NCBI GenBank assembly: GCA_038562165.1 | Contig: JBCFAO010000012.1 | Coordinates: 19,850 to 83,849, forward strand | Direction: 5' to 3' | Source of the DNA: Clostridiales bacterium | GTDB lineage: Bacteria > Bacillota > Peptococcia > DRI-13 > UBA5745 | Length of the DNA: 64,000 nt | Part shown: positions 19,892 to 41,593 of the stretch, one piece after another | Layout: each line of letters opens with the position of its first letter | Numbering within the stretch: position 1 is the stretch's first letter | Made by a program: the position numbers and the translations under genes | Notes under the pieces: generated by a model | Told to the model about the DNA's origin: nothing | Database searches by the model: none | The model's input: the letters and a program-made list of their open reading frames with translations, nothing else

Positions 19892-19986
19892 GGAAAGTCC
19901 TCCTCAATTATTATAGAATTAAATTCCGTGAGCCTTGCGTCCGCTGTCTTGGCGGATTTTACAATAGTGGAAAACGAAACACCTCC

Positions 19987-20020
19987 TTAGCTTGTGAAAA
20001 TGAAAAGATTCACAAGCTAA
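19987..20020. promoter_or_regulatory. Perfect 12-bp-arm palindrome in the permease leader
   Basis: TTAGCTTGTGAA-N10-TTCACAAGCTAA, located about 95-130 nt upstream of the permease ATG. Confidence 0.4.
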
Positions 20021-20035
20021 ACAAAATAACCATAT

Positions 20036-20097
20036 AAAAACACTGCCTGCCCGGAGGCATAGGGGTGACCGTTTATTTCGGCCATACCCCCGGGCAG
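20036..20097 (-). terminator. Rho-independent terminator after hmd
   Basis: On the minus strand CTGCCCGG...CCGGGCAG long imperfect hairpin followed by GCAGTGTTTTTATAT. Confidence 0.7.
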
Positions 20098-20140
20098 ACA
20101 ATATTTTTCCCGGAGGAAACGGGATACAGAAGAATCAGTA

Positions 20141-21544: not shown

Positions 21545-21594
21545 GTGATCATTCCTTTCCAAACCCTTGCATACTCATTTTTGATGTGGCAGCC

Positions 21595-22464: not shown

Positions 22465-22473
22465 GTTCCAGAA

Positions 22474-23949: not shown

Positions 23950-23953
23950 GGCC

Positions 23954-25105: not shown

Positions 25106-25118
25106 GTGTATCAACTCC

Positions 25119-26963
25119 TTATTTATTTCTTGCCTTTAATAGGGCTTCTGTTTCAGCAATGATCTTATCCGTATCGGTGCCGGGGCCATAGAAGGCGTCT
25201 ACGCCTAAGAAATCAATGCCTTCATCAGCGATTTTCTTTTCATACATGGCATGCTCTTCTTCTTTTTCGGCAATACGGCCGCCGGCGATGATCAGGGTCT
25301 TATCCCGCCGGCCCAGCTCTTCCAGACGCTGGCCTACCCGGGGAAAGAGGGTTTGAGCCATGCCCAGCAGGTTGTTGATGCCGATGATGTCGGCATTGGC
25401 TTCGGCGGCTACTTCCGCTACGGTTTCCGGCAGGTTCATGCCCCGCAGGTAAATGATATTGAAGCCTGCCTTCTGGTAAGCTTCCCGTACCTGGTTGATG
25501 CCCTGGACGTGGGCGTCGGCGCCTACGGTGCCCAAAACGATGGTTTCCGGCCTGTTGGCTTTGACTTCCGCCGGCACGGTGATATTATCGATGGAAACCG
25601 CTACCCGCTCCGGATCGATGCCCAGGGGAGTGAAGCCTTTGATGTAGCGGGTGATGCCGTCATGATCCCGGTGAACCTTGACGTGACGCTTCAGATCCCA
25701 GCCGCCGGCCCGCTGGCAGTCGAAGATACCGCTTTTGCCGGCTTCCACAGCCTTGTCGATAAGCTCCTCATCGCTCCACTGCATCCAGAATTCCGGGGTA
25801 ATCTGGTCGGGAGTCAGGTTCTTTACGCCCAAAGCGCCTTCCAGCACAGCCATGGCCTCGCTGAGGATTTCTTTTTTCCTGGCGTCGATAATGGGAGATT
25901 CGATGGGCTGGGTATAAGTACCGTCAAAGACGTTGCGGGTGGCCCAGATGGACTGGCCCATGGAATCTCCGGTGGGAATACCCACGGATTCGGCAGCCTT
26001 AGGCCGGTAGAAGTGGGCGCCGCCCAGCTTGGCATTGATGGCCATCCGGGCAAAATGAGCAGACTCGGCGATCAGGTTGGGCGGCGGATTCTGGAAGGTT
26101 TCCGGTACCACGATCAGGGATTTGCTCCACATATTTTCTTTAAATGCCTGCATAACGGCCAGATCCGCATAGATGTTGATGCCGGCGATATTCATCTGGA
26201 TAGCGGACAACTCAGCCGGCAGGCCGGCGTGAATGGCCAGGCCCTCGGCCATCAAGCACATGGCCAGAGCCATACCGTCGGTGCCGCCGATGTTATTCAA
26301 ATGCTTGTGGGAGTCAAGCTGTACGAAGATATTGTTGTCGGCGCAGACCTGAAGGGCTTTGTAGCCGTTAACTACCTTCGTTTTGTAATCATGGATGCCC
26401 CGGCCGCCGAAATGGACGTGGATCACCGGACCGATGTCGGTGCCGTCAAAGCCGGCAATTAAAGCATTGATAATGGAAAGGTGGGGGGTGTCCCCGGTAG
26501 CGTTAATCCGCACCGGATGCTTGGCGCCGCCGCCCATTTGCACGTAGTCCCGCTCTCCTTTGGGAGTGATGCCGCCTTTGCCCCGGGACTGCTCGATGAG
26601 TTCCCGGCCTTTCAAAGGATCAATATGGCGGGTGGCTTCGGAATGGACGAAGTGGAAGAGGGTCTCGTCGAATTTTTCGGCGTACTCATACATGTTCTTG
26701 GATTCTTTGTATGTTTCTTCACCGGTATTGCGGCCCAAAATGGGATTCTGCACAGGCCAGCCTCTTTTTTCCGCCAGCTGGGCCAGCTCGTAAATACGGT
26801 AACCGCTGCGGACTATCCCCGCTACTTCCCGGGGATAGGGCGCCGGCAGGCCCACAACTTCGCCTTTTTCGTCCAGATCCGGCATCTCCACGCCGAAAGT
26901 GTCGGCATAAGCCCGGACGGCTTCAATATCTTCTTTGATAATACGTTTTGTCTTTTCTTGCAT
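25119..26963 (-). CDS. mgm: Coenzyme B12-dependent 2-methyleneglutarate mutase
   Basis: 614 aa. C-terminal cobalamin-binding domain with GADAHVQGI (DxHxxG). Followed by mii and the GlmL-like gene. Confidence 0.88.
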
Positions 26964-26977
26964 GATACGTCTCCTTT

Positions 26978-27469
26978 TTATGAAATTCCTAATTCTGCCC
27001 GCACCCGGGGAATCAGACCGCCGTAGTCCAGGGTTTTCAAAACATTATCCGACAGAGGCTTAGCCGTAACCTGGCCATCGGGATAACGAATCTCACCCTT
27101 GACCATATCGACTTCGATAATATCTCCGTCCTTCAAAGCGCCGGCAATATCAGCCGCATAAACGGGCAAACCGATATTGATGGCATTGCGGCGGAAAATC
27201 CGGGCAAAGCCGGTGGCCACTACCAGACTTACGCCGGCCATCTTCAAAGCGATAGGGGCTTGTTCCCGGGAAGAGCCGCAGCCAAAATTGCGTCCCGCCA
27301 CGATAATGTCGCCGGGCTGTACCCGGTTGACAAAATCAAGGCCGGGGGCTCCTGCCATAGCGTATTTGCCTAATTGTTCAAAGGGTTCGGCCATGGCGAA
27401 GCCAGGCAGAATCTGATCTGTATCCACATCGTCACCCAAGACAAAAACCCGTCCTTTTATTACTTCCAT
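26978..27469 (-). CDS. dmdB: 2,3-dimethylmalate dehydratase small subunit (LeuD-like)
   Basis: [12 protein letters not shown] and [14 protein letters not shown]. Start set to the ATG at 27469 after GGGAGGGA. Confidence 0.85.
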
Positions 27470-27506
27470 TTGCGCATCCCTCCCAATTGATTTCATTCGC
27501 AAAGTA

Positions 27507-28703
27507 CTAGAGGCTGACCTCTGTACCGGGTACCGTGATCTTGCCGGCAATGGCGCTGGCGGCAGCCGTAGCCGGCGAAGCCAGGTAGATCTGGCCTTTG
27601 TTTGCTCCCATACGGCCGGGGAAATTGCGGTTGGTGGTGGATACCACCACGTCCCGGTTGCTGATCAGGCCTTCGTGGGCGCCGAAGCAGGGGCCGCAGC
27701 CGGGATTGAGCACTGTGGCGTTGGCCTCCCGGATGATCTTGCACCAACCCTTTTCCTCCATAGTATTTAAGACGTTTTTGGAGGAGGGCACTACCAGCAT
27801 ATTAACGCCCGGATGAACCTGACGGCCCTTGAGGGCTAAAGCCACCTGCTCCATATCATTGATGCGGCCGTTGGTGCAGCTTCCTACCACAACCTGGGTA
27901 ATGGGCAGACCGGCCACCTCCGCCACATCACAGACGTTGGCAGGGGAGAAGGGCTTGGCAATTTTGGGGTTAAGGGTGGACAGATCGATTTCCCGGATCT
28001 CTTCCACTTCCATTTCCTTTTCTTCCGTACCAAATAAGGTGATCATGCTGCCCAGCTCCGTGCCCATGTTGCAGACCGTCATGCGCTCCGCCACAGAAAA
28101 GCATTCAATGCCGGGGCCGGTGATCAGCAGGCCTTTATCCGTTAAGTAGTCGGTGCCAAAGATTTCACCCAAATAAAGAATGAAGTCTTTGCCGAATACG
28201 TTTTCTTTCAATTTTCCGGTAAGATAAACCTGCACCACTGCCGGCACCTCAAGATCCAAACGGCCTGTAGCCATGGCGGCGGCAGCTTCCGTGGAGCCTA
28301 CGCCAATGCCGATGGCGCCGTAGCCGCCGCAGGTGCAGGTGTGGGAATCGGCGATAACCACCAGTTCTCCCGGTTCGGCCCGGTGTTTTTCATACATGAT
28401 CTGGTGGATGACGCCTTCACCTTTTTTATAGATGGGAATGCCAAATTCCCGGGCAAAATCGTCCATAATCCAAACGCTGTCCCGGGCTTTCTCACTGGCT
28501 GCAGGATAGATGTGATCGACAATCAAAAGAACCCGCTTCGGATCGAATACTTTGTCAACGCCAATTTCCCGAAATTGCTTTATGGCGATAGGGGCAGTCA
28601 CATCATGGGCGGCCACATAGCCAACCTTACAACTGACGTCCATTCCGGCACTTACCTTGTCTAAACCGGCGGCTTTGGCCAAATGGCTTTCGATCAAATT
28701 CAT
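27507..28703 (-). CDS. dmdA: 2,3-dimethylmalate dehydratase large subunit (aconitase/LeuC-like)
   Basis: 398 aa. ADSHTCTCG and GSCTNGR Fe-S ligand motifs. Confidence 0.88.
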   Translation of the reverse strand: MNLIESHLAKAAGLDKVSAGMDVSCKVGYVAAHDVTAPIAIKQFREIGVDKVFDPKRVLLIVDHIYPAASEKARDSVWIMDDFAREFGIPIYKKGEGVIHQIMYEKHRAEPGELVVIADSHTCTCGGYGAIGIGVGSTEAAAAMATGRLDLEVPAVVQVYLTGKLKENVFGKDFILYLGEIFGTDYLTDKGLLITGPGIECFSVAERMTVCNMGTELGSMITLFGTEEKEMEVEEIREIDLSTLNPKIAKPFSPANVCDVAEVAGLPITQVVVGSCTNGRINDMEQVALALKGRQVHPGVNMLVVPSSKNVLNTMEEKGWCKIIREANATVLNPGCGPCFGAHEGLISNRDVVVSTTNRNFPGRMGANKGQIYLASPATAAASAIAGKITVPGTEVSL

Positions 28704-28763
28704 TGTTAAACACCTTCCTGCAAATCAAATTTAATAGTTTTTCGTAAATTGTTCCGGTAAAGA

Positions 28764-28795
28764 AGAAGCCCGGCTCCGGCAGGAACCGGGCTTCT
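28764..28795 (-). terminator. GC-rich hairpin between the transporter gene and dmdA (weak terminator or attenuator)
   Basis: AGAAGCCCGG-N12-CCGGGCTTCT, followed on the minus strand by TCTTTACC (poor U-tract). Confidence 0.35.
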
Positions 28796-28844
28796 CTGGC
28801 ATACGTTAACAAAAACAGTGTAGTAAAACCTTACTTTGGCATGT

Positions 28845-29930
28845 TTAGCATTCGATTTTGTAATCGCCAGACTTGATCATGCCTTGTTTGCGCATAAGCT
28901 CTGAGGTTAGCCAGGCCACTGCGGCGGGAATGACGATGGCGATGAGCAGAAGGCCCAGCCAGTCAAAAGCGGTAGCGCCGGTGGCCACTTCGCCGAGATT
29001 GGCGGCAGCTTCAGAAGGCGTAAACCAGCCGGTGATGACGCCGATGGGGCCTACCATACCGGAGGTGCCCATGCCGGAGGCGATGGGAGGACCGTTTTGC
29101 TTCAATTTGAAAATCATTGTAGCAACAGGGCCGTTGACGATGGAGGCAACCACCGCCGGCAGCCAGAGAACAGGCTTGCTCATCAGATTGGGTACTTGCA
29201 GCATGGAAGTACCGAGGCCCTGAGCCATCAGGCCGCCAATCTTGTTTTCCCTGTAGGAGGCCACACCAAAACCTACCATGTGGGCGCAGCAGCCGGCTAC
29301 GGCAGCGCCGCCGGCCAGACCCACCAGGCCTAAAGCTGCGCAGATGGCAGCAGAGCTGATGGGTAAGGTAAGAGTAATACCCATGATGGCGGAGACCAGG
29401 ATACCCATCAGGAAGGGCTGCATGTCGGTGGCCCACATAATGGCATAACCGATGGAAGAAGCGACTTTGCCGATGGGAGGCGCCAAAATGACGGCGGCGG
29501 TAACACCCACGACAATGGTCACAAAGGGTGTGGCAATCAAGTCGATAGGCGTAGTTTTGGAAACCAGTTTGCCGGCAAAAACGGCAATAAGAGCGATAAA
29601 GAATACGGCTAAAGGACCGCCGGCGCCGCCTAAGGAGTTGGCCGCCTGACCTACGGCTACCAAGGAGTAAAGGACAAAGGGCGGGGCTTTTAAAGCGAAG
29701 CCGATGGATACGGCCATGGCCGCACCGGTGCCGGCCGTGGCAAAGCCGCCGATTTGGTTAAGGAAAGGAATGCCTAATTGAGTACCGAGGGTATTGATAA
29801 TGGTACCAATTAATAAAGATGCAAAAAGACCTTGAGCCATAGCGCCGAGGGCGCCGATACCGATTCTGTTCCAGGTAATTTCAATACCTTGCTTTTTCAT
29901 AAAAGCGGAAAAGGATTTAGGTTCTGACAT
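28845..29930 (-). CDS. Polytopic membrane protein, PTS-EIIC_2-like (stand-alone; putative pathway transporter)
   Basis: 361 aa. N-terminus ...ITWNRIGIGALGAMAQGLFASLLIGTIINTLG resembles the orphan EIIC_2 family. No other PTS components nearby. Confidence 0.5.
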   Translation of the reverse strand: MSEPKSFSAFMKKQGIEITWNRIGIGALGAMAQGLFASLLIGTIINTLGTQLGIPFLNQIGGFATAGTGAAMAVSIGFALKAPPFVLYSLVAVGQAANSLGGAGGPLAVFFIALIAVFAGKLVSKTTPIDLIATPFVTIVVGVTAAVILAPPIGKVASSIGYAIMWATDMQPFLMGILVSAIMGITLTLPISSAAICAALGLVGLAGGAAVAGCCAHMVGFGVASYRENKIGGLMAQGLGTSMLQVPNLMSKPVLWLPAVVASIVNGPVATMIFKLKQNGPPIASGMGTSGMVGPIGVITGWFTPSEAAANLGEVATGATAFDWLGLLLIAIVIPAAVAWLTSELMRKQGMIKSGDYKIEC

Positions 29931-29960
29931 AGATGATCCCCCTCTCAGTGATCGATCGAT

Positions 29961-29989
29961 AATATCTTATGAAAAGATACCGTGGTCAA
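29961..29989 (-). promoter_or_regulatory. Candidate sigma-70 promoter for the transporter gene
   Basis: Minus strand TTGACC-17 nt-GATATT, about 30 nt upstream of the ATG region. Confidence 0.4.
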
Positions 29990-30028
29990 ACTGCAAAAAC
30001 CATCTATTGCCCCTGCGTACATTGCCGG

Positions 30029-30210
30029 ACATCTGCGCCCCAAGTTCTTTTCGGATAGCAGATTGAGTCCGAAGGCCATCTGCGCCCTGATATCTTCGGA
30101 TAGCAGATTGAGTCCGAAGGCCATCTGCGCCCTGATATCTTCGGATAGCAGATTGAGTCCGAAGGCCATCTGCGCCCTGATATCTTCGGATAGCAGATTG
30201 AGTCCGAAGG
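30029..30210. repeat. Tandem array, 45 bp x4 (three perfect copies), each unit carrying a hairpin
   Basis: Unit CCATCTGCGCCCTGATATCTTCGGATAGCAGATTGAGTCCGAAGG at 30076, 30121 and 30166. Diverged first copy at 30029-30075. Inverted repeat CTTCGGA-N12-TCCGAAG in each unit. Confidence 0.9.
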
Positions 30211-30386
30211 ACACTTTTGTTTTCAACGTACGCAGAGCTCTGTAACACCCCCTTCTTTAGGGTTTTCCTGATTGCTCTATCACCGGATTCCGCCGGCCCA
30301 AGGTCCTTTGCTTTAAGCATTGCACCGAACCTTGAGCCGGCTAAGCCATAGGCAATACGATAGGGATTCCAACAGGCCTAATCGTA

Positions 30387-32630
30387 TTAGCTGCGGATCT
30401 TTTTCATCACTTCCGTAGGCATTAGAGGAAGCTCGAAAAATCTCTGACACAAAGCGTTTTCCACAGCATTGGTAATGGCGGGAATACCCGGTATCAAAGC
30501 AGGCTCACCGACGCCTTTGGCGCCGAAGGGACCGGCCTCTCCAGGACACTCAACGATAATGGGATAAATTTCAGGTGAATCCATAGCGGTGGGAATCAGA
30601 TATTTTGAGAAAATGGGGTTTTTGATTTTACCCTTTTCGAATTCGATTTTTTCAAAAACGGCAAAGCCTTGAGCCATCACCATGCCGCCTTCGATTTGGC
30701 CTTCCACCATCTCCCGGTCTACGGCCTGGCCTACGTCATGGGCAGAAATCAGTTTCTGCACATCCACTTCGCCGGTGCTGGTATCTACAGACACTTGGGC
30801 GATGGTGGTGCCGTAAGAATAGATCTCGTAAGGAATACCGGCCATGGTTTTGGCATCCAGATAGGTGGTCTTGGGGTTGTAAGCGCCGGCGCCTACTGCC
30901 AGCTTGCCCCATTTTTTCATCTCAGCCATCAGCTCAGGGTACGTCATTTTGATGGCGGGGTCCTTGGAGCTGTAGATCATCCGGTCACGGAAGATCAGGT
31001 CTTCTTTGGGCACATTCAGAAAATTGGAAGCGGTCTCGGCTAAGGTATCCTTAGCCTGCTTGCAGGCATTTCTGGTGGCGTTGCCGGAGATAAAGGTCTG
31101 GCGGCTGGCTGAAGAGGCGCCGCCTTCCGGTGTTACCATTGTGTCGGCGGCAACAACATGAATGTCGTCATAAGAAAGACCCAGTTCTTCGGCGGCAATG
31201 GCGGCCATAACCGTGGAGGAGCCCTGGCCGATATCGGCGCAGCCTACCATCAGGTTGACGGAGGCGTCAGCCAATACCTCGACGAAAGCGCCGGCGGGAT
31301 TGGGCAAGCCGGTGTTGCCGACGCCGTACCACATGCAGCCTACGCCGATGCCTTGGTTTTCTTTGCAGGGATCCAGCACTTCCGCCGCTTTTTTCTTGGC
31401 TTCCAGCAGGGTATCGACAAAACCTACAGCCTCGTCCAGCACCTGGCCGGTGGCCAGCACCGTGCCGGGCCTTTGGGCATTGAGAATCCGCAGGTCGATG
31501 GGATCCATATTAAGAGCCTTAGCCAGTGCGTTCATCTGGCCTTCATGGCAGACGGAAACCTGGGGTACGCCAAAGCCCCGGAAAGCGCCGCACATAGGGT
31601 TGTTGGTGTAAACAAAATCTGCATCAATCCGCACATTGGGCACATCGTAGGGACCCATGGCGTGGACCACGGCTCTGGTGATAACCGCGGGACCGTAAGA
31701 GGCGTAAGCGCCGGTATCGCCGGTCATGAAGACTTCCGTTGCTAAAACCTTGCCGTCTTTGGTGGCGCCGGTTTTGGCTTTCATCACCATGGGATGGCGC
31801 TTGGCGGAAACGTCGGTGGACTCTTTACGGCTGCGGACCATCTTCACAGGGCGGCCGGTGGCGTTGGTCAAAAGAGCCAAGTGGCACTGGACGGAAATAT
31901 CCAGCTTGCCGCCGAAGCCGCCGCCGGTGGTTACCTGCATTACCCGGACCTTGTTGTTGGGCAGGCCCATGGTTCTGGCCACCTCGCCCCGGTCAAAATG
32001 GGCGTTTTGGGTGGAAGCATAGACGGTGAGAATGCCGTCTTCGATACGGGCTACGCCGGCATCGGGCTCGATAAACATATGGGACAGCATATTGGTGGTG
32101 TAAGTGCCTTCGACGATAACGTCACATTGGGCAAAAGCTGCATCCACATCGCCGGATTCCAAATGCTTGCGGGCATGGAGGTTGCTGTCGCCATGGACTT
32201 TGATGGCGCCCTCTTTCATAGCGTCCTCATAGGAGAGGATGGGCTCCAGGAGGTCGTACTCCACTTCCATTAGCTCCAAAGCTTCTTCCACCAGCTCCGG
32301 TGTTTCGGCGGCTACGATAGCGATGGCGTCGCCTACCCGGCGGATCTTGTCGTCCACCAGTACCGGCTCATCCTTCATAATGATACCGATGCGGTTGCCG
32401 CCGGGGATATCCTTGGAGGTCAGCACACAAGCCACACCAGGCAGGGCCAGAGCTTTGGAAGCATCGAAGCGTTTGATGGTGGCATGGGGCACTGTGCTGC
32501 GGAAAACACCGCCGTACAGCATATGGTCGAATTTTAAATCGGCGGCAAATAAAGCCTTGCCGGTAACTTTATTGTAGGCGTCCTTTTTTACATTGGCTTT
32601 GCCCAGGACTGCCAGATCACGTAATGCCAT
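30387..32630 (-). CDS. Molybdopterin-binding subunit of a xanthine-dehydrogenase-family hydroxylase (nicotinate dehydrogenase; corresponds to NdhL+NdhM as one polypeptide)
   Basis: 747 aa. [11 protein letters not shown] motif. Uninterrupted ORF following the FAD and 2Fe-2S subunit genes. Confidence 0.8.
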
Positions 32631-32650
32631 ATTGATCGCTCCTTCCTTCC

Positions 32651-33115
32651 TTAATTTCCTGCGGCCATATCGACGGCCTTAAAGATTTTGGTGTAGCCGG
32701 TGCAGCGGCAGAGGTTGCCGGACAGCGCCCGCCGGATTTCTTCATGAGTGGGATGGGGATTCTTCATCAGCAGGGCTTTGGCCGATAAAACCATGCCCGG
32801 CGTGCAATAACCGCATTGAACAGCGCCGGCTTCCACGAAAGAAGTCTGCAGTTTGTCCAGCTCGCCGTCTTTCATCAAACCCTCGAGAGTCAGGATGCTG
32901 TCCCCTTCAATTTGGCCGGCCAGCATCAGGCAGCTGGTAACGGGAGTGCCGTTTACTAAGACGGTGCAAGCACCGCATTCCCCTTCGCTGCAGCCTTCTT
33001 TAACGCTGGTGCATTCGCAATCTTCCCGCAAAAGATCCACTACCCGTTTGTTGGGATTGGTTTCTACCGTTACGGGCTTATCATTTAATATAAAGCTGAT
33101 TTTTATTTTATCCAT
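32651..33115 (-). CDS. ndhS: Nicotinate dehydrogenase [2Fe-2S] small subunit
   Basis: [25 protein letters not shown]. Start set to the ATG at 33115 (TAAtATG junction with ndhF). Confidence 0.85.
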
Positions 33116-33116
33116 A

Positions 33117-33998
33117 TTAACGACCACCTTCCTGCAGACCAAAATCCGCCAGAATCCGGCCAAAGGTCTTGTCGGAAACGCCTTTGACCCCTTCTTTCTT
33201 GTAAGGCATGGAAGCTCTGGTGGGAATCATCTCCCTGACGGCATCCGACAGCAGATCGGCACAAGGTGCAAAGGTGGCTTTGCTGACGGGTTTGCCTGCC
33301 AAATACTCCTCAACCTTGGGCAAACGGGCAGGCTTAGGCGATACGCCGCCTATGACTACCTGAGCCCGGCTGATATTGCCGGCATCGTCTTTTTCAACGA
33401 GGACGGCCAAACCTACAACGACGATGACCAAGGCCTTTCTCTTGCCCAGCTTCATGGTGGCCGTGGCAACTCCCTTGGCAGGCGCGTCGAAATAGATTTC
33501 CGTCATTAACTCGTCGTCGGCAATCTGGGTTTTTTTGCAGTTGGCGTAGAAGTCCGTCAGCTTCATTTCCCGTTTGCCGGCCTTGCTTTGCAGCACTACG
33601 GTGGCATCCAGGGCCATGAAGGTGGTGGGGCTGTCGCCGGCCACGGAGCAATTGACTACATTGCCGCCGATGGTGCCCAAATTGCGGATCTGGGGCGAGC
33701 CTACATGAACGGCGCAAGAATGAAGGCCTTTGACATTCTCTCTGATATAAGGATCGTTTTCCAGTTCGGTAAAGGTGGTTAAGGCGCCGATTTTCACTTT
33801 GCCGTCTTCCACTTTACAATAACGGAGCTCATTGAGCTTGTTGATGTTGATCACACAGTCGGTGTCCCGCTGACGTTCCGTCAGCTCGATGACCACGTCT
33901 GTGCCGCCGGCGATAACCGTGGCTCTGCCTTTACATTGGTTCAGCAGATCCAAAGCCTCTGTCAGCGTCTTTGGCGTGTAAAAATTAAATGCTTTCAT
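33117..33998 (-). CDS. ndhF: Nicotinate dehydrogenase FAD-binding subunit (CoxM/XdhB-like)
   Basis: 293 aa. IAGGTDVVIEL and GTIGGNV motifs. Confidence 0.85.
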   Translation of the reverse strand: MKAFNFYTPKTLTEALDLLNQCKGRATVIAGGTDVVIELTERQRDTDCVININKLNELRYCKVEDGKVKIGALTTFTELENDPYIRENVKGLHSCAVHVGSPQIRNLGTIGGNVVNCSVAGDSPTTFMALDATVVLQSKAGKREMKLTDFYANCKKTQIADDELMTEIYFDAPAKGVATATMKLGKRKALVIVVVGLAVLVEKDDAGNISRAQVVIGGVSPKPARLPKVEEYLAGKPVSKATFAPCADLLSDAVREMIPTRASMPYKKEGVKGVSDKTFGRILADFGLQEGGR

Positions 33999-34079
33999 AA
34001 AAGAACGAACCCCCCTCGTCTTTTAACATAATAGGAATATGACCGGTAATACTGGTGAGCCCTGGTGTAATTGGTGTCC

Positions 34080-34970
34080 TTAACAATCTTTGACCTTGAC
34101 GCCGGCCAAGTCTTCCCAAACCTTGATGACGGCGGAAATATCCTGGCGGTTGAGGCCTTTGGCCCGGGCCATCTCAAAAACCTGAGCCGCAGCGGCGGTC
34201 AAAGGCAGAGGGGCGGCCACGTCTTTGGCGGCGTCAAGAGCCAGGCCCAGATCTTTGTACTGCAGATCCACGGCAAAGCCCGTATCAAAAGCATCGGCCA
34301 TGATGAATTTGTCAAACTTAGCCTCCAGGGCATAGGAACGGCCGGAGCTGACGCTGATTACTTCTTTCATGGTTTCCGCTTTCAGACCCAGCTTAGCGCC
34401 CAAAACGAGAGCCTCGGCCAGGGCGGCCATGCTGGTGCCCAAGAGCAAGTTGTTGACGATTTTAATGGCGTCGCCGGCGCCGGCTTCTCCAACGTGGTAA
34501 ATGTTTTTCCCTAATACCTGGAGAACGGGAGCAACTTTTTCATAAGTTTCTTCGTCACAGCCCACCATAATGGTAAGGGTGCCTGCCGCAGCGCCGGACA
34601 CGCCGCCGCTGACGGGAGCGTCCATGTATTTGACGCCGTATTTCTCGCCGGCCTTGGCCATAGCCTTGGTGGTGGCGGGAGCTACGCTACTCATGTCCAT
34701 GATGATGGTGCCGGGTTTGCAGTTTTCCATAACGCCGCCTTTGCCGGTCATGACCGTTTCTACAATTTTGGCGTTGGGCAGCGAAGTAACGATCAAATCA
34801 GCTTTGGCGGACAACTCTCCGCTATCGGCACAGGCTTTGGCGCCGAAGCCTTCCAGCTCTTTGACGTTTGCTTCAATTAAATCATAAACATAGACCTCGT
34901 AGCCGGCAGCCAAAAGATTCTTTGCCATAGGTTTGCCCATGGCGCCTGCGCCGATAAAACCGATTTTCAT
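34080..34970 (-). CDS. hgd: 2-(hydroxymethyl)glutarate dehydrogenase (3-hydroxyisobutyrate dehydrogenase family)
   Basis: MKIGFIGAGAMGKPMAKNL Rossmann N-terminus. Start set to the ATG at 34970 after AGAGGA. Confidence 0.85.
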   Translation of the reverse strand: MKIGFIGAGAMGKPMAKNLLAAGYEVYVYDLIEANVKELEGFGAKACADSGELSAKADLIVTSLPNAKIVETVMTGKGGVMENCKPGTIIMDMSSVAPATTKAMAKAGEKYGVKYMDAPVSGGVSGAAAGTLTIMVGCDEETYEKVAPVLQVLGKNIYHVGEAGAGDAIKIVNNLLLGTSMAALAEALVLGAKLGLKAETMKEVISVSSGRSYALEAKFDKFIMADAFDTGFAVDLQYKDLGLALDAAKDVAAPLPLTAAAAQVFEMARAKGLNRQDISAVIKVWEDLAGVKVKDC

Positions 34971-35085
34971 GAGTATCAATCCTCTTTCTTGTGATATCAG
35001 TAGATTAAGGAAAGGGGGCGGCAACGCGTCGTCCCCCGTAAACCTCAATCACAGTAACAATACAGGGAGTTTAAAAGACGGACGC

Positions 35086-35667
35086 TTAGCGCAAGCCGTC
35101 TTCGCCTTTGATCTCGCTGATTTGCAGGCCGCCGATTCTGGGATGAGGACGGCCGCCGTCAGTGAAGGCCAGAGCCACTACGATTTCGTCGCATTTGGGA
35201 GCGTCGGCAATCCTGACCTCCATGGCATCATAGTGGGTGCGGACAAAAGCGGCGTCTTTATAGTGCAGAGGTACATCCAAAGCCGTACCGGCAGCGCCGG
35301 CTTTTTTGGCGGAAGGAATGATGGCTTTGCCGCCGCCGATGGCGTCGCGCATGGGTTTGCCCAGCTTGGGATGAAGAATGGCGGCGCAATGCTCTAATTC
35401 GCCGTCCAGGCCGGCGATGGCGCCTTTGCCGTAGCTGTGGATATTGCCTTCGCCCAGAATCTTGGCAGCTTCCTTGGAAAGGTAATCGCCCAGCCATTCG
35501 CCGACTTCACTGAGCTCGGACAAATCTTCCTGGTATTTGCCGGCATAAGGATTCTTAATAACGGCGGCTACGGAAACCCGGCGAATGGGTTTTTCCAGGT
35601 CGGAGAAGCCTTCGTAACGGATTTCTTCCACAGAGGTAACGACTTTTCTGATTTTGGGTTCTAACAT
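35086..35667 (-). CDS. AA_synth / DUF1185 family protein ('amino acid synthesis' family, function unknown)
   Basis: About 193 aa. Sequence pattern (VAAVIKNPYAG..., GKGAIAGLDGELEH) recalled as PF06684-like. ATG at 35667 after GGAGAG. Confidence 0.5.
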   Translation of the reverse strand: MLEPKIRKVVTSVEEIRYEGFSDLEKPIRRVSVAAVIKNPYAGKYQEDLSELSEVGEWLGDYLSKEAAKILGEGNIHSYGKGAIAGLDGELEHCAAILHPKLGKPMRDAIGGGKAIIPSAKKAGAAGTALDVPLHYKDAAFVRTHYDAMEVRIADAPKCDEIVVALAFTDGGRPHPRIGGLQISEIKGEDGLR

Positions 35668-35705
35668 AAGCAATCTCTCCTTTATATGTATAATTGATCT
35701 TGATC

Positions 35706-36623
35706 TTACTCGGTTTGGGAGCCTGGCATATTGATCCGGATCATCTGATCCTGAACTCTGGCGGTCATCGCCAGTAAGTTGCCTTTATGCTTTTGCCGGA
35801 GGGCTTCCTGCTCCGCTTGGGCCAAAGCCTGCCGCACTTCCCGGCGGGTCAGCCGGTCTACTGCCACTACTACATCCAGATCCCGGATATCGCTTTGGGG
35901 ATCGAAAACACCGGCTTTCGTCGTCAGAACCCGGGGAGAAGGCACATAGGTGGTATTGGCCAGGTGAGTGGCCAAAGCGTCGGCTAAAATGCAACGGGAA
36001 GAAAAAACGCTGACCCCTTGGGCGATGCCCCGGGTGAAGCTTCTGCCCCCCAAACCGCTGGTGGCTACGCCGCCGATGCCGTCCTCAGCTTTGATGGGAA
36101 CCACCAGATCCACCTGGCCGGCAGCAAGGCTTGACATAATGCCCAGATTCAGCTTTTGTCCGGGGGCCAGCCGCAGAGCTACGTCGCCGCCGTTGTTGAC
36201 GGAAACCCGCTGGGCTCCCCGGGCAAAGAGCCAATCGGCTACTAAATCCGCCATAGCCCCGGCAACGGTAGCCATAGGAGTCAAAGTAGGCTCTTCCACT
36301 GCTAAAACGGCCTCCAGCATTTGGGCCGGCAGTCCCGTCAGAATCCGCAAGGGAATTTGGCCGGGATACAGGCGCAATAAATCCAGAGAGGAGGTGAGCT
36401 CTTTCAGCCCTTCCTCTATTACGGCAAAAGCCTGGCAGCAAAGGTCCGTTAAGGGACGGCCTTCTTTATCGGCCATAATCACCATGGAAACGGGCCCGTA
36501 GTCTACGTAAACCTTGCCGTCCTCCAGCACCCGGTAAGGACCGGAGTCCGGGGCGGAGGCAAGCCGGTCATGATCTGTAATTTGATACTGCATAGAAGCC
36601 TCCGCAAAACCTGTAGTAATCAT
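35706..36623 (-). CDS. UPF0280 / ApbE-related protein
   Basis: 305 aa. Recalled resemblance to the UPF0280 family (ApbE-like fold). Sits directly downstream of hnr. Confidence 0.5.
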   Translation of the reverse strand: MITTGFAEASMQYQITDHDRLASAPDSGPYRVLEDGKVYVDYGPVSMVIMADKEGRPLTDLCCQAFAVIEEGLKELTSSLDLLRLYPGQIPLRILTGLPAQMLEAVLAVEEPTLTPMATVAGAMADLVADWLFARGAQRVSVNNGGDVALRLAPGQKLNLGIMSSLAAGQVDLVVPIKAEDGIGGVATSGLGGRSFTRGIAQGVSVFSSRCILADALATHLANTTYVPSPRVLTTKAGVFDPQSDIRDLDVVVAVDRLTRREVRQALAQAEQEALRQKHKGNLLAMTARVQDQMIRINMPGSQTE

Positions 36624-36654
36624 TAAAGAGAAGCGAGGCAGCGGCTAAGGACTT

Positions 36655-36727
36655 TAGTGCTCTGTAGCCCCTTGAAGTTTGCACCTGCTTGCGCATCTGT
36701 GACAACTTTTAGGAGTCACAAAGCATC
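36655..36727. repeat. Family B GTGAC-hairpin element, two inverted arms meeting at TGCGCA
   Basis: TAGTGCTCTGTAGCCCCTTGAAGTTTGCACCTGCTTGCGCA / TGCGCATCTGTGACAACTTTTAGGAGTCACAAAGCATC. Confidence 0.7.
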
Positions 36728-36731
36728 CGGC

Positions 36732-38237
36732 CTAGGCATCGCCTTTTAAGGTTTTGACATCCTTGACCTGATCCATATGACCGCCAATAGCCTCGTAGTC
36801 CGATAGCTTCATGGTATACTCCACCGGCGCCACCGTAGCGGGAGTGGGGACCCAGCTAAAGCCGTTGGCTACCACTTGCTCGGTATCGATGATGAAGTTG
36901 ATGCCGCCGCCGGGAAGAATAAAGGTGGGAGCGCCGCCGATGGTCAGAACGGCTTTGCCGGCGTGGACGGCTTTGGAAAGAGCCAGAGGCTTCTTGCAGA
37001 CGCCGCCCCGGGCGCTGCCGCCGGTACCGCCGGTGTACATCACGGAACAGCGGGATTCTTCACAGGCTTCATTGATGGCTTTCGGCACCCGCAGGGCTTT
37101 TTCCGTCATGGGGATGGCCTTGACTTCGCCGTCGGCCTGTAGCTCAAAGAGCTCATGAATCTCACCGGTGGTATTGACCACCAGAATCGTCATGCCCGGT
37201 TTGGCAATGGACATATCCACGCTCTTGATGGCATCCCGGCAGCTCATCAGCGTAGTGCCGCCGATGCCGTCGCCGTGTTCGCCAAAGTAGCGGCCCCGGG
37301 AGCTCTTGGTGGCGTTGGGCACCACGCCGCTCCAGGAAAGGCCGATGGCAGCGCCGGCCAGATGCTCGGTGCATAAGCCGATGACATGATGGTCGATAAC
37401 CAGGCATTCGTCCACGCATTCTTTCATGAGATAGGCAAAGAGGCCTACGGTAGCGCTGCCGCAGCCCAGGCGCATTTTCTTTTCCTGAACGCCGTTGATG
37501 ATGGGGGCTTTGCCGGCCTGCATGCGGACTTTGTATTTCTTGTCTACGGAAACTTCCACTTCCTGGCCGTTGGCCAGTTCCACGATGGTGCGGGCCGTCA
37601 TGAAGCCGCCGTCACCGGTGAGCCGGTTAGCGCCGCCGATGGCGATCATTTTGGAGCCGTATTCTTCCGTATTGACCATACCCACAACTTTGCCGTCACG
37701 GTAGACCTTGGCGCCCTCTTCGCCGATATAGCTGTTGGTATCCAGCTTCACAATCAGGCCGCTGTAGCTCAAAGGTGCTTCTGTGACAACGGTAACCACA
37801 TCCACGCCCTCTCTGCTTTCCTTGACGATATGGGGAGCAGGCAGGGAGCAGGGGTAGTTGGCGCCGCCGCCGACGGCGGTAATGATGGGCCGGCGGATAT
37901 TTTCCTCGGGGGAAACTAAATCCTTGGGCTCCAAAACATGTTCCAAAGTTCTTTCCAGCTTGCCGTTTCTGTTGGCGTAGCGTTTGCAAGCACCGGTAGC
38001 GCCTTCAGGAACCCGGCACTGAATGGGACAGTTGCTGCATATTACGGCGGCAGCCGGCAATTCGTCGGTTTTCTCCAAAGCTTTAAAAGGACAAACCCGG
38101 ACGCAGATGCCGCATTGTACGCAGGAATCTTTAATGTGCAGTTTTTTTCCTTCTAAGTACAAAGCTTCTACGGGACAGTTTTTTACGCAAATACCGCAGC
38201 TTTTACAATTTTCGTTAACGATGATCACTAAATCCAC
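36732..38237 (-). CDS. hnr: 6-hydroxynicotinate reductase (N-terminal 2x[4Fe-4S] ferredoxin domain)
   Basis: CKSCGICVKNCP and CVQCGICVRVCP, then CSNCPIQC...C. About 500 aa. Start ambiguous (GTG at 38237 or GTG at 38228). Confidence 0.78.
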   Translation of the reverse strand: MDLVIIVNENCKSCGICVKNCPVEALYLEGKKLHIKDSCVQCGICVRVCPFKALEKTDELPAAAVICSNCPIQCRVPEGATGACKRYANRNGKLERTLEHVLEPKDLVSPEENIRRPIITAVGGGANYPCSLPAPHIVKESREGVDVVTVVTEAPLSYSGLIVKLDTNSYIGEEGAKVYRDGKVVGMVNTEEYGSKMIAIGGANRLTGDGGFMTARTIVELANGQEVEVSVDKKYKVRMQAGKAPIINGVQEKKMRLGCGSATVGLFAYLMKECVDECLVIDHHVIGLCTEHLAGAAIGLSWSGVVPNATKSSRGRYFGEHGDGIGGTTLMSCRDAIKSVDMSIAKPGMTILVVNTTGEIHELFELQADGEVKAIPMTEKALRVPKAINEACEESRCSVMYTGGTGGSARGGVCKKPLALSKAVHAGKAVLTIGGAPTFILPGGGINFIIDTEQVVANGFSWVPTPATVAPVEYTMKLSDYEAIGGHMDQVKDVKTLKGDA

Positions 38238-38299
38238 CCTTTCTTAAACCCTCTTAACCCCTTAAAACCTAAGCATTACCTTGGCGGCTTATTAAAGCC

Positions 38300-39460
38300 T
38301 TATTGAACTTTGGCCTGGCGTGTGGCGGGAGGCGTATTGCGGCTCTTGTTGACCTTCACTACGCCGTCGATGATGACGATGCTGACGCCGGGGATGTCGC
38401 CGGCGGCAATGGCGCCCAAAGCGTCCTCGGCTACGGAGCCCAAAGGGGCGTCCATGATTACCAGGTCGGCCTCTTTGCCGGGAGCAATAACGCCGGTGTT
38501 TAGACCGTAGACCTTGGCGGTATTGCCGGTGGCCATACAAACGGTCTGTTCGGGAGCGATGCCGGATACGGAAGCGATCTGGCACATATTGCGCAGGATG
38601 CCCAAGGGAATCAGGCCGGTGCCGGAAGGAGCGTCGTTGCCGAAGATAATCCGGGGCAGCATACCTTTTTCCTGGGCCCGGCGGGCTACGTAATCGGCTA
38701 CCTTGGGATTGCCGCACTGAACGATTTCCAGAGCAAATTCCGTCTCGTCCATGATACGGTCCACTTCCTGCAGGGAGATAGCGGTAGGTCCGCCATTAAT
38801 ATGAGAAACCACATCGGGCTTCGTGGCGATAACATCAGCGGCAGTGACGGTGGAGCTGCCGGGAATGGAAGTGCCGCCGGTATGCATTTGCACTTTGAAA
38901 CCATATTTATGGGCCCACTCTACCATCGGAGCTGCTTCGGCAGGAGACTTGACGGAACCCAGGCCGATTTCGCCTACGATCCATACGCCTTGCTCTTTCA
39001 GCTCGGCAAAGTCTTTTTCCACAAGGCCTTTTTCCAGGATCAGGCCGCCGCCGTGAACTTTAACCCCGGAAGGCCGGGCATTCTCATAAGATTTATGGGC
39101 TAAAATAGCCAGGGCTTTCGTACCGGCCGGATCTTTAGGACGGCCGGGCATATGAGCCTCGCCGGCGGAAATCATAGTGGTAACGCCGCCGTGTAAAGCA
39201 CTGTCAATATAATTAAGGGTGGACTGGCGCTGGGCAAAATCTCCGATAGTGGTATGAACGTGAGAATCAAAAAGTCCGGGTGTTACGGTAGTGCCGCCGG
39301 CGTCAATAACTTTGGCGCCTTCAGCCTTTTCGGCCAGCTCTTTGCCGCCGATGGCAACGATAAGGTTGTCCTCCACGACTATAGTATCACCTTTCAGGAT
39401 TGGGTTGGCACAATCCCCGCTGACAATAGTACCGATGTTGGTAATGATTAGCTTGCTCAT
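38300..39460 (-). CDS. ena: Enamidase (amidohydrolase superfamily; 1,4,5,6-tetrahydro-6-oxonicotinate hydrolase)
   Basis: 386 aa from the ATG at 39460 (GAGGAG RBS). GLFDSHVHTTIG metal-binding motif. Confidence 0.82.
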   Translation of the reverse strand: MSKLIITNIGTIVSGDCANPILKGDTIVVEDNLIVAIGGKELAEKAEGAKVIDAGGTTVTPGLFDSHVHTTIGDFAQRQSTLNYIDSALHGGVTTMISAGEAHMPGRPKDPAGTKALAILAHKSYENARPSGVKVHGGGLILEKGLVEKDFAELKEQGVWIVGEIGLGSVKSPAEAAPMVEWAHKYGFKVQMHTGGTSIPGSSTVTAADVIATKPDVVSHINGGPTAISLQEVDRIMDETEFALEIVQCGNPKVADYVARRAQEKGMLPRIIFGNDAPSGTGLIPLGILRNMCQIASVSGIAPEQTVCMATGNTAKVYGLNTGVIAPGKEADLVIMDAPLGSVAEDALGAIAAGDIPGVSIVIIDGVVKVNKSRNTPPATRQAKVQ

Positions 39461-39534
39461 GATACATTCTCCTCTCTCTATATAAAAAAGTGGTTGGTCC
39501 GGTCCCCCTATGACCATCTATTACTATTTAACAT

Positions 39535-39550
39535 AGCAAGAAGTATGCCA
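39535..39550 (-). promoter_or_regulatory. Sigma-54 (-24/-12) promoter upstream of ena
   Basis: Minus strand TGGCATACTTCTTGCT. GG-N10-GC spacing is exact. About 75 nt upstream of the ena ATG. Confidence 0.75.
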
Positions 39551-39683
39551 AAAATTCGACAATGATGAAAAATAGAATAGAGTATACAAAAAACCTTTAC
39601 ATTTGTTAAGATTTTTGATGATTGGGCCAGAAAGCAGAAAAGGGCAAAAGTTGTCGGATAAAAACGGAAAAAGCGACCAAACA

Positions 39684-39770
39684 TTTCAAAAATGTAATGC
39701 CTCAAAAATATGGCGGCCTGTGAGGGATTTTCAACGTTTCAAAAATGAAATGATGGTTTCAAGGTTGAAA
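39684..39770. promoter_or_regulatory. Three TTTCA-N4-TGAAA palindromes (candidate enhancer/UAS for the sigma-54 activator)
   Basis: TTTCAaaaaTGTAA 39684-39697, TTTCAaaaaTGAAA 39737-39750, TTTCAaggtTGAAA 39757-39770. They lie 135-235 bp upstream of the -24/-12 element. Confidence 0.5.
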
Positions 39771-39833
39771 TACACAGGCGCCGATATTGCTGAGGCATAA
39801 GGGGTGAGGCTTTTAATTATTCTATTTTTTCAT

Positions 39834-41405
39834 TTATTCAATGCCAAATTCTTTGATTTTTCGCCAGAGGGTGATGGTGCTGATACCCAGCAGGTCGGCG
39901 GCTTCTTTTTTAATGCCGCCGGCATGATGCAAGGCGTTTTTGATGGCTGCAATCTCCGCATGCTGGATCTGGTCCTTTAAATTGAAAGATTTGCCCGTTG
40001 GGCCCCTGTGGCCCTGACTCAAGTTCAGCAAATAAGGGGGCAGGCTTGAACTCAGCAACCGGCTTTCGTTGACGCTGGTCATATTCATAGCCCGTTCCAC
40101 GCAGCTTTTCAACTCCCGCACATTGCCGGGCCAGTGGTGGCTCATTAAAATGTCGTAAAATCTGTCTTCGGCGGAAAAGACGAATTTTCCCAACAGCCGG
40201 TTAAATTCCGCAATAAAAGTTTTAACCAGCAGGGGAATATCCTCCTTGCGCTCCCGCAAAGGGGGGATGCGGATCTCGATGACGTTGATGCGGTAGTAGA
40301 GGTCCTCCCGGAAACGGCCTTCTTTGACAGCCTGAAGCAGGTCGCTATGGGTGGAGGAAATAATGCGGACGTCCAGCTTAATCGGCGTGAACTCCCCGAT
40401 GCGCATTACCTCTTTTTCCTGAATGACCCGCAGCAGTTTTGTCTGCAGGTCCGGCGGCATTTCACTGATTTCGTCAAGAAAAATCGTACCCGTATTGGCC
40501 TGCTCGAAGGCGCCGCTGCTGCCTTCTTTTTTGGCACCGGTAAAAGCGCCGCCGGAATAGCCGAATAAATAGCTTTCGATGATGCTGGCCGGTATGGCGC
40601 CGCAGTTGATGGCGACGAAAGGCTTATCCCGCCGGTCGCTTTCGTTATGGATAGCCTGGGCAAAGAGCTCTTTACCGGTGCCCGTTTCCCCATTGAGCAA
40701 AATGGAGGAGGCCCGGGAGGCCGTAAGGCACAAGTGCTTGGCATAAGTGATTTTTTCGCTTTCGCCTACAATATCCTTTAAATTGTAGCGGGCGGTCTGA
40801 AACTTTTTAACTTCCTCAAATAATTTTTTCTCATGGTGGACGGTGAGCTCGTTATTGAAGCCCAGACCGTATTCTTTAGTAATAGGAATGCGGATAGCCA
40901 TGGCCCCGTGAACGGAGGTGGATTCGCCGAAGGTGGGGGTTTGCTCCTCCATGGCTTTGCGGGCCAGCTTGCTGACCTTGCCGATTTGCTTTTCAATAAC
41001 CTTGCCAGCGGCGTCTACCGTATTGAGCCGTAAGCCGTTTTTATCGAAAATAACGGCTTCGCCGCCTACGAGGCGGGCAATAAAGGGCAGGGCCTGATCC
41101 AAAGATTTGACCAAGGCTTGATCCCTGGCGGTTTTGGCGGTGTTGCTGGCGGCAATCACGTAGTCGCCGAAGGGAATGGCCCAGGTTTGGGCGTCATTGG
41201 CGATTTGAGAGAAACCGATCTTGATCTGGCCGCTTTCACCGGCTTCCCGGGCCAGGTCGTAAACCATGCCCCGCATTTCCGTCAACTCCGTGCCGGAGGA
41301 ATCGTAAGTCCTGATCCGGATGCCGGCGGTGTCGGTGATTGTGGAATAGCCTTCGCAAATTTGGGCGATGGATTTTAAGGCATCTTCAAATTGGGCAGCT
41401 TCCAT
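39834..41405 (-). CDS. Sigma-54-dependent transcriptional activator (bEBP) with an uncharacterised N-terminal sensor domain
   Basis: 523 aa. GETGTGKELFAQAIH Walker A, GGAFTGA loop, C-terminal Fis-type HTH. Confidence 0.88.
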   Translation of the reverse strand: MEAAQFEDALKSIAQICEGYSTITDTAGIRIRTYDSSGTELTEMRGMVYDLAREAGESGQIKIGFSQIANDAQTWAIPFGDYVIAASNTAKTARDQALVKSLDQALPFIARLVGGEAVIFDKNGLRLNTVDAAGKVIEKQIGKVSKLARKAMEEQTPTFGESTSVHGAMAIRIPITKEYGLGFNNELTVHHEKKLFEEVKKFQTARYNLKDIVGESEKITYAKHLCLTASRASSILLNGETGTGKELFAQAIHNESDRRDKPFVAINCGAIPASIIESYLFGYSGGAFTGAKKEGSSGAFEQANTGTIFLDEISEMPPDLQTKLLRVIQEKEVMRIGEFTPIKLDVRIISSTHSDLLQAVKEGRFREDLYYRINVIEIRIPPLRERKEDIPLLVKTFIAEFNRLLGKFVFSAEDRFYDILMSHHWPGNVRELKSCVERAMNMTSVNESRLLSSSLPPYLLNLSQGHRGPTGKSFNLKDQIQHAEIAAIKNALHHAGGIKKEAADLLGISTITLWRKIKEFGIE

Positions 41406-41503
41406 AGGCGTTTCCTTTCTTATCCCGATAGCGGTTTTTTATCAGGAATCGGGATTAAGGGTTGATTATAGCGGTTATTGATGTAGAATGAACAATAGAG
41501 CCT

Positions 41504-41593
41504 GAATTCGAGAAGCTTGAATTCGGGAGGCCGGAATCCGAAAAGCTTGAATCCAAGAAACTGGAATCCGAGAGGCCGGCATTCAAAAAGGGA
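41504..41593. repeat. Tandem array, 15 bp x6 (GAATYCGAGARGCYK), ending 8 nt before the downstream ATG
   Basis: gaattcgagaagctt / gaattcgggaggccg / gaatccgaaaagctt / gaatccaagaaactg / gaatccgagaggccg / gcattcaaaaaggga. Confidence 0.85.

Follow-up and report, generated by a model that had tools for sequence, protein, structure and literature searches.

Regulators of nicotinate degradation and related enhancer-binding proteins

The anaerobic fermentation of nicotinate by Eubacterium barkeri is a biochemical classic, with its selenium-molybdenum hydroxylase, enamidase and B12 mutase. Aerobic nicotinate degradation is regulated by NicR (MarR type) and NicS (TetR type) in Pseudomonas putida and by BpsR in Bordetella. 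In Aspergillus nidulans, HxnR is a zinc-finger activator of nicotinate catabolism (PMC5746545). Our literature searches found no description of how the anaerobic fermentation is regulated, and nothing relevant that paired sigma-54 with nicotinate or enamidase; the original E. barkeri cluster paper was outside their coverage. A catalogue of 39 groups of clostridial enhancer-binding proteins likewise includes no nicotinate sigma-54 regulon (PMC6615313). Here, we analyse a 64-kb stretch of DNA from a Clostridiales bacterium (contig JBCFAO010000012.1, positions 19,850 to 83,849; hereafter the window, to which coordinates refer), in which a 373-nt intergenic region separates a gene for a bacterial enhancer-binding protein (bEBP) from ena, the gene for an enamidase. 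Its sequence elements and their conservation elsewhere make it likely that this region is the sigma-54-dependent control region of an E. barkeri-type nicotinate-fermentation cluster. This would provide the first concrete, directly testable regulatory model for the anaerobic pathway.

Like NicR, NicS, BpsR and HxnR, the bEBP is encoded in or beside the cluster and would exert pathway-specific control over nicotinate degradation genes. It differs from them in family, DNA motif and mechanism, as these are sigma-70-type repressors or, for HxnR, a eukaryotic activator, and they serve aerobic pathways.

A closer mechanistic parallel is NtrC at glnAp2, where dimers bind palindromes upstream of a GG-N10-GC promoter and DNA looping leads to ATP-driven formation of the open complex. 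Our locus also has multiple palindromes upstream of a GG-N10-GC promoter, and the proposed mode of looping and ATP use is alike. However, NtrC is a phosphorylated response regulator, whereas the window's bEBP has no receiver domain, and there are three sites here rather than two strong ones, placed farther upstream (-166 to -239).

In domain layout (PAS-type sensor, AAA+ domain and Fis helix-turn-helix (HTH)), the protein resembles the COG3829-type PAS bEBPs, such as RocR and AcoR of Bacillus subtilis and DhaR and TyrR of Escherichia coli. A fragment with 93% identity to it carries the Joint Genome Institute (JGI) label 'transcriptional regulator with PAS, ATPase and Fis domain'. Unlike these proteins, its sensor module goes undetected by the Pfam PAS and GAF models, and its two sensor lobes are both short, derive from an internal duplication and are differently arranged. 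DhaR also differs in sensing protein partners rather than a small molecule.

The best-scoring named family for the bEBP is PrdR (NCBIfam NF041552; E 1e-111, 373.8 bits), a sigma-54 activator that serves the proline reductase operon of Clostridioides difficile and related clostridia (PMC6615313). We rejected membership of this family, as the score falls below the cutoff of 795 bits and the alignment runs only from residue 155 to the C-terminus. PrpR (TIGR02329) was rejected too, with 328.5 bits against a cutoff of 499 and no PrpR_N Pfam hit. Both PrdR and our protein are one-component Firmicute bEBPs encoded beside an anaerobic catabolic operon, with predicted activation from multiple upstream activating sequences (UAS) (PMC6615313). 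They differ in the UAS itself, TGT-N10-12-ACA for PrdR (PMC6615313) against TTTCA-N4-TGAAA here, in the target pathway, and in the first ~150 residues of the window's bEBP, which do not align.

We regard the system as an ordinary one-component PAS-type bEBP of the RocR/AcoR/DhaR class at an NtrC-style enhancer-dependent promoter, with no new mechanism. As an ordinary enhancer-dependent sigma-54 system, it would not surprise a specialist; its value lies in a testable model for a classic pathway and in a sensor module that has escaped annotation.

The predicted promoter and its upstream palindromes

The minus strand carries a sigma-54 -24/-12 element, TGGCATACTTCTTGCT (TGGCAT-N5-TTGCT), at 39550..39535, with GG-N10-GC geometry and an exact fit to TGGCA-N6-TTGCW. 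The window contains no other exact match on either strand; against a chance expectation of 0.54, this count is not significant taken alone. It stands on the correct strand within the 373-nt gap directly upstream of ena, and 76-77 nt separate the -12 GC (39537/39536) from the ena ATG (39460). When two mismatches were allowed, the pattern turned up in the window at about the frequency expected by chance, and no other credible promoter emerged. An earlier sequence-only reading of this DNA had proposed a GG-N10-GC promoter at 39550-39535 on the minus strand, about 75 nt before the ena ATG, and both the geometry and the distance are borne out.

Promoter geometry only places the predicted transcription start at 39524 on the minus strand, ~12 nt after the -12 C, which gives ena a predicted 5' untranslated region of ~64 nt. 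We took 39460 as the start of ena rather than the mechanical open reading frame (ORF) start at 39517, because the alignment with the E. barkeri enamidase begins at M1, that is, at 39460. Folding of the leader gave no significant structure (z -0.84), and an Rfam scan of both the leader and the window found no known RNA element; hence, a riboswitch or attenuator in the leader was dropped as a reading.

Three copies of a 14-bp palindrome, TTTCA-N4-TGAAA, lie further upstream as predicted UAS (listed without strand). Site 1 (TTTCAAGGTTGAAA, 39757-39770) and site 2 (TTTCAAAAATGAAA, 39737-39750) are perfect and site 3 (TTTCAAAAATGTAA, 39684-39697) has one mismatch, reading TTACA-N4-TGAAA on the minus strand. 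The sequence-only reading had located the same three copies, two of them perfect, and our coordinates and mismatch count agree. Reckoned from +1 at about 39524, their centres fall at ~-239, ~-219 and ~-166. They had also been described as standing at classic enhancer distance, which holds in that they are enhancer-like and upstream of the promoter, but they are somewhat farther away than textbook NtrC sites. With up to one mismatch, the window contains five such palindromes against an expectation of 2.8, and three of these five fall within 87 nt. The centre-to-centre spacings are 20 bp between sites 1 and 2 and 53 bp between sites 2 and 3, or ~2 and ~5 helical turns, hence placing all three sites on the same face of the helix. 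Between the UAS and the promoter (39551..39683, minus strand) is an A/T-rich spacer with repeated T-tracts (32% G+C, vs 53% for the window). This is presumably the looping segment, where the DNA may bend. The palindromes were also considered as a terminator of the bEBP gene, and this was rejected because their stems are A/T-rich and only 5 bp long, and a terminator scan found none after the bEBP stop codon.

Two further elements are seen around these sites. An 8-nt inverted repeat, ATGCCTCA ... TGAGGCAT (39786-39793 and 39699-39706), brackets sites 1 and 2 and has equivalents in three of the related loci described below (L004, L005 and L002). A block adjoining site 3, CATATTTTTGAGGCA, is invariant across the four closest relatives. 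The block could be a further protein-binding element or merely reflect recent common ancestry.

Conservation across other genomes

A profile of the bEBP's N-terminal module, built from a seven-sequence alignment, identified 28 loci in species-representative genomes (given L numbers below). Of these, L004, a Clostridia metagenome-assembled genome (MAG), is 99% identical and in essence the window's own lineage, and L005 is 96% identical. The other loci are 38-58% identical over the matched N-terminal module, and for most of them the full-length bEBP shares 45-55% identity with ours. The carriers include Veillonellaceae and other Negativicutes, Sporomusa, Tepidanaerobacter, Syntrophaceticus/Thermacetogenium, Halanaerobiales, Desulfitobacterium, Desulfosporosinus, Peptococcaceae, Dehalobacterium and a Syntrophaceae MAG. 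E. barkeri is not among the 28 loci, in a scan that rested on a single peptide pattern.

Comparison with the window's proteins by blastx showed that most homologues are directly followed by nicotinate-pathway genes: ndhFSLM, ena, hnr, hgd, an hmd-like gene, dmdAB or mgm. The gene order varies by locus, with ndhS-ndhLM-ena-hnr, ndhFSLM-ena, hgd-hmd-dmdAB-mgm and ena-AA_synth-hgd all occurring. The ena-hnr synteny is kept in L004-L008, and in Tepidanaerobacter (L010 and L011) it is homologues of the distal half of the window's cluster that directly follow the bEBP.

We then considered the 19 non-redundant loci with intact downstream sequence, the window included. Each has one to three TT[T/G]CA-N4-TGAAA palindromes within ~150 nt of the bEBP stop codon, some of them overlapping it. 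Downstream of the palindromes, on the same strand, all 19 have a TGGCA-N6-TTGC element with GG-N10-GC spacing; 17 are exact, while two have one mismatch but keep the GG-N10-GC. The sequence around this element is not alignable among the loci, yet its position and strand are kept. The sequence-only reading had suggested scanning other genomes for the palindrome, and it does recur together with the bEBP and the -24/-12 element.

Allowing up to one mismatch, we counted 44 palindromes in the 4.18 kb following the stop codons and 33 in the other 229 kb, a 73-fold enrichment. The 44 sites give an extended 18-bp consensus, cATTTCA-N4-TGAAAtG, and the distances between sites cluster at whole helical turns (20-21, 41-43, 53-55, 72-75 and 82-83 bp). 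Several of the 33 outside hits belong to second sets of palindromes and promoter, found before ena in L017, before ndhF in L023, before the corrinoid/MttB genes in L018 and, divergently, before a flavoprotein and a major facilitator superfamily (MFS) transporter in L014. Such sets before other operons of the clusters indicate the behaviour of a regulon. Comparison of the window with its closest relatives, L004, L005 and the metagenomic fragment L002, shows conserved half-sites, diverging flanks and a site 1 spacer that reads AACC, AACT, ATAA or GTTT. Apart from the bEBP, no regulator gene occurs consistently in the examined loci. That protein family, palindrome, -24/-12 element and pathway occur together across bacterial classes is difficult to account for unless they are regulator, operator, promoter and regulon. 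The co-conservation of palindrome and protein family supports the prediction that the bEBP acts on the palindromes.

In four loci, the bEBP, palindromes and -24/-12 element are followed by genes for a corrinoid protein (B12-binding_2 and B12-binding domains), an MttB-superfamily methyltransferase and a BCCT or SSS transporter. These are L012 (7849 onward), L015 (7853-12038), L018 (7822-12607) and L024 (7799-12532), hosted by Syntrophaceticus, Thermacetogenium and two Desulfosporosinus species. Sister species of these hosts have a nicotinate dehydrogenase at the same position, and relatives of MttB demethylate quaternary amines. Together, these observations suggest that the corrinoid/MttB loci could be a system for demethylation of trigonelline (N-methylnicotinate) that feeds the nicotinate pathway. 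A literature search found no description of such a demethylating enzyme.

The activator and its sensor module

The gene directly upstream, at 41405..39834 on the minus strand, encodes a 523-aa protein that we provisionally call a 'NicR-like' bEBP. Pfam identifies a Sigma54_activat domain (PF00158) at residues 214-378 (E 4e-66), AAA_lid_14 at residues 384-465 and a C-terminal Fis-type HTH (HTH_8, residues 484-520, E 3e-10; 39846..39956, minus strand), supporting the earlier assignment of this gene to the bEBPs. The translation contains a Walker A motif, GETGTGKE (residues 239-246; 40668..40691, minus strand), and an intact GAFTGA loop for sigma-54 contact (residues 286-291; 40533..40550, minus strand). 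Strong sequence matches in the PDB are the AAA+ domains of CapR, NifA, ZraR, FleQ and NtrC1. The product thus has the full domain set of a sigma-54 activator.

Upstream of the bEBP gene there is a TATAAT at 41470..41465 and no recognisable -24/-12 element; hence, the gene is probably expressed independently of its own product. Beside this TATAAT, in the divergent region between the bEBP start (41405) and an ORF beginning at 41602, there are 5-6 copies of a 15-nt unit (AGCTTGAATCCGAGA-like, core GGATTC/GAATTC) at 41499-41590. The array could be a set of binding sites controlling either the bEBP gene or the divergent ORF, whose 271-aa product has no Pfam match.

The N-terminal sensor module covers residues 1-205 (40791..41405, minus strand). 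For residues 1-214, Pfam at E <=10 gave no real hit, only a chance match to DUF711, and NCBIfam gave none. PDB searches with the sequence and with a 27-sequence profile of the module gave chance hits only. An AlphaFold model from the 27-sequence alignment, which replaced a run from three sequences with a predicted local distance difference test score (pLDDT) of 68, reached a pLDDT of 95.2 and a predicted template modelling score (pTM) of 0.81. In the model, a long helix links two successive helix-beta-beta-helix-beta-beta-beta units, thus displaying the five-stranded antiparallel sheets and flanking helices of PAS-like alpha/beta domains in tandem. The two halves align at 33% identity (E 5e-10), indicating that the module arose by internal duplication.

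Foldseek searches of the PDB with this model returned DhaR(N), FixL PAS-A/B, MmoS and DctB (probability 1.0, E 3e-6 to 5e-5), with the N-terminal domain of DhaR as the top match. The whole-module template modelling score (TM-score) is low, ~0.3, so the two lobes are arranged differently from the solved examples. No sequence model of the Pfam PAS clan matches the module. The structural model thus indicates a divergent double-PAS module overlooked by the profile libraries, and not a new fold. The sequence-only reading had matched the first ~200 residues to nothing it recognised, thought they could be a new nicotinate or 6-hydroxynicotinate sensing module and suggested HMM or structure prediction. 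Neither Pfam nor NCBIfam has a model that detects them, but the predicted duplicated tandem PAS-like fold contradicts the idea of an unrecognisable module.

A word-index protein search returned three relatives, both with the N-terminal domain and again with the seven-sequence profile, and thus badly under-reports this bEBP family. An exhaustive HMMER search revealed bEBPs of ~520-545 aa with this module in roughly 25 or more clusters at 50% identity, and about 25 full-length family representatives were chosen from the top of the hit list. Judging from gene context only, the ligand of the sensor would be nicotinate, a pathway intermediate or possibly trigonelline.

The nicotinate gene cluster

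The window has 18 consecutive minus-strand genes over 21 kb (39460..18575) that, by domain content, appear to be the full E. barkeri-type gene set for nicotinate fermentation. The first is ena (38300..39460, 386 aa, with the ribosome-binding site GAGAGGAGAA upstream), whose product matches the E. barkeri enamidase (PDB 2VUN) over residues 1-385 of 386 with ~78% identity (E 8e-197). The next (36732..38237, minus strand) encodes a 501-aa protein with an N-terminal 2x[4Fe-4S] ferredoxin domain, a putative 6-hydroxynicotinate reductase (hnr-like) on the basis of Fer4 and synteny. According to Pfam, these are followed at 30387..36623 (minus strand) by PRK04334/ApbE-like, AA_synth (PF06684), an hgd-like dehydrogenase, ndhF, ndhS and a fused ndhLM; the domain content of the last three corresponds to the FAD, 2Fe-2S and Mo subunits of a nicotinate-dehydrogenase-type enzyme.

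From ena to ndhLM the intergenic gaps are short, and a scan of the minus strand found no intergenic terminator-like site, which suggests transcription at least through ndhLM. The element at 39550..39535 had been proposed as the promoter of an ena-hnr operon. The two nicotinate genes are indeed directly downstream, but transcription probably continues well beyond hnr, at least through ndhLM.

A 456-nt gap parts ndhLM from the distal half of the cluster (18575..29930, minus strand). By Pfam, this half comprises a PTS_EIIC_2-like gene, dmdA, dmdB, mgm, mii, a reactivase, dml, a 473-aa hmd-like gene and a permease. Their types are aconitase for dmdAB, B12 mutase for mgm, PrpF for mii, MutL for the reactivase and an ICL/PEP-mutase-type lyase for dml. 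With one such promoter for the cluster, and a repeat array and a sigma-70-like hexamer pair within the 456-nt gap, sigma-54 control of the distal half is less certain. The array lies between the ndhLM stop (30387) and the PTS_EIIC_2-like start (29930), just upstream of the hexamer pair at 29989..29961. It is a perfect 45-nt tandem repeat of 3.6 copies (30050-30210, 100% identity, unit TTCGGATAGCAGATTGAGTCCGAAGGCCATCTGCGCCCTGATATC), each unit containing the inverted repeat CTTCGGA...TCCGAAG, and it might separate two transcription units. At the far end, an insertion sequence element (an HTH_Tnp_2 ORF and an rve integrase ORF, 17046-18415) adjoins the last gene, the permease at 18575-19891.

Proposed mechanism and alternative explanations

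In the mechanism that we propose, sigma-54 RNA polymerase would rest on TGGCAT-N5-TTGCT (39550..39535) as a closed complex, and dimers of the neighbouring bEBP would bind the three in-phase palindromes through the Fis-type HTH. Binding of an effector, most likely nicotinate or an early pathway intermediate, to the tandem PAS-like module would relieve the inhibition of the AAA+ domain. The three dimers would then form a hexamer, the A/T-rich DNA would loop, and the GAFTGA loops, with ATP hydrolysis, would open the promoter for transcription of ena and hnr and of at least seven further genes, as far as ndhLM.

Several points weigh against this account. The UAS are rather distant, and rpoN is not among the genes of the 64-kb window. 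Between the UAS and the -24/-12 element there is also a sigma-70-like promoter (TTAACA-17-TATACT, 10/12, 39609..39581), which could add to ena transcription, or even dominate it. Only one -24/-12 promoter is found in the window for an 18-gene, 21-kb cluster, which is interrupted after ndhLM by the gap with its repeats and hexamer pair. Lastly, in the four corrinoid/MttB loci, the bEBP family adjoins a methyltransferase system and not nicotinate genes. Regarding rpoN, three genera with homologues of the bEBP, Desulfosporosinus, Desulfitobacterium and Dehalobacterium, are reported to have sigma-54 regulons (PMC6615313).

The presence of a corrinoid/MttB system beside some family members, in place of or in addition to nicotinate genes, means that the effector need not be nicotinate itself. 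The architecture could be as described while the sensor responds to something else, such as a downstream intermediate, a precursor, or a redox or energy signal through a PAS-bound cofactor. Candidates among the intermediates are 6-hydroxynicotinate, 2-formylglutarate and 2-(hydroxymethyl)glutarate, and trigonelline is a candidate precursor. Binding of cofactors or of varied small molecules is common among PAS domains, and the nearest structural matches include the heme- and FAD-binding PAS pairs of FixL and MmoS; the placement of homologue, palindromes and -24/-12 element before corrinoid/MttB and BCCT or SSS genes in L012, L015, L018 and L024 points the same way. However, most homologues stand directly before nicotinate dehydrogenase or enamidase/reductase genes, induction by the substrate is the usual logic of one-component catabolic bEBPs, and no cofactor-binding motif was identified in the sensor. 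A different effector therefore falls short of probable but deserves serious weight.

Doubts about the DNA elements themselves carry far less force. Short A/T-rich palindromes are a common operator type, and the conserved block next to site 3 in close relatives might suggest that another protein, for example a repressor encoded elsewhere, binds here while the bEBP recognises some other sequence. Since the palindromes travel with the bEBP family across phyla, always lie upstream of a -24/-12 element (also at the second promoters of the same loci), and have no other regulator gene consistently associated with them, we consider this very improbable. We give equally little credence to the idea that the -24/-12 element is non-functional here and that ena is expressed mainly from the sigma-70-like promoter or by read-through from the bEBP gene. 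The 10/12 match, the negative terminator scan after the bEBP stop codon and the chance-level count of -24/-12 matches are what one would cite in its favour, but such hexamers are expected by chance in DNA of 36% G+C (19 found against 11 expected in 14.5 kb). The -24/-12 element, in contrast, keeps its position and strand in 19/19 loci with surroundings that cannot be aligned. A basal contribution from the sigma-70-like promoter or from read-through is possible; neither explains the conserved -24/-12 element.

Returning to sigma-54-dependent control by the bEBP, the comparative data define a regulator family, an 18-bp operator consensus, a promoter class and a regulon across several bacterial classes, together with a confident structural model for a sensor module that profile libraries leave unannotated. 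This should help annotate "sigma-54 interacting regulator" genes and predict niacin degradation in anaerobic communities, and offers a candidate niacin-responsive switch. A broader proposal, to which we give about even chances, is that the whole bEBP family is a dedicated niacin-pathway sensor, with mini-PAS domains that bind nicotinate or a close derivative, for example 6-hydroxynicotinate or trigonelline. It would govern a conserved sigma-54 regulon in anaerobic Bacillota and some Deltaproteobacteria, covering MFS, BCCT and SSS uptake, a possible corrinoid/MttB trigonelline demethylase and the whole of nicotinate fermentation. If true, this would give the anaerobic pathway its first regulator and its first defined operator, and would supply a ready-made niacin biosensor.

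Additional features of the related loci

Four Desulfosporosinus loci have double sigma-54 promoters ~200 nt apart downstream of the bEBP gene (L016, 7813-8023; L018, 7822-8032; L021, 7839-8053; L024, 7799-8013), and in L023 the first promoter after the bEBP (7844) is followed by the next ~470 nt downstream, at 8317. In all five, the first promoter precedes a conserved ~130-nt segment that ends in a strong hairpin and T-run (AATGGTGCCTTAG...CTAAGGCACCATTTT). The layout points to a short transcript driven by sigma-54, which could be a small RNA or a terminated leader.

Transporters of the MFS type (Sugar_tr/MFS_1, ~450-470 aa) recur beside the bEBP homologues, at 2729-4126 in L008, 2298-3653 in L014, 4478-5815 in L015, 8120-9475 in L017, 4199-5581 in L024 and 4394-5809 in L025. 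Their recurrence makes them candidate nicotinate importers of the same regulon. In place of such a transporter, the window has the PTS_EIIC_2-like protein and the permease, which is of the cytosine/purine type.

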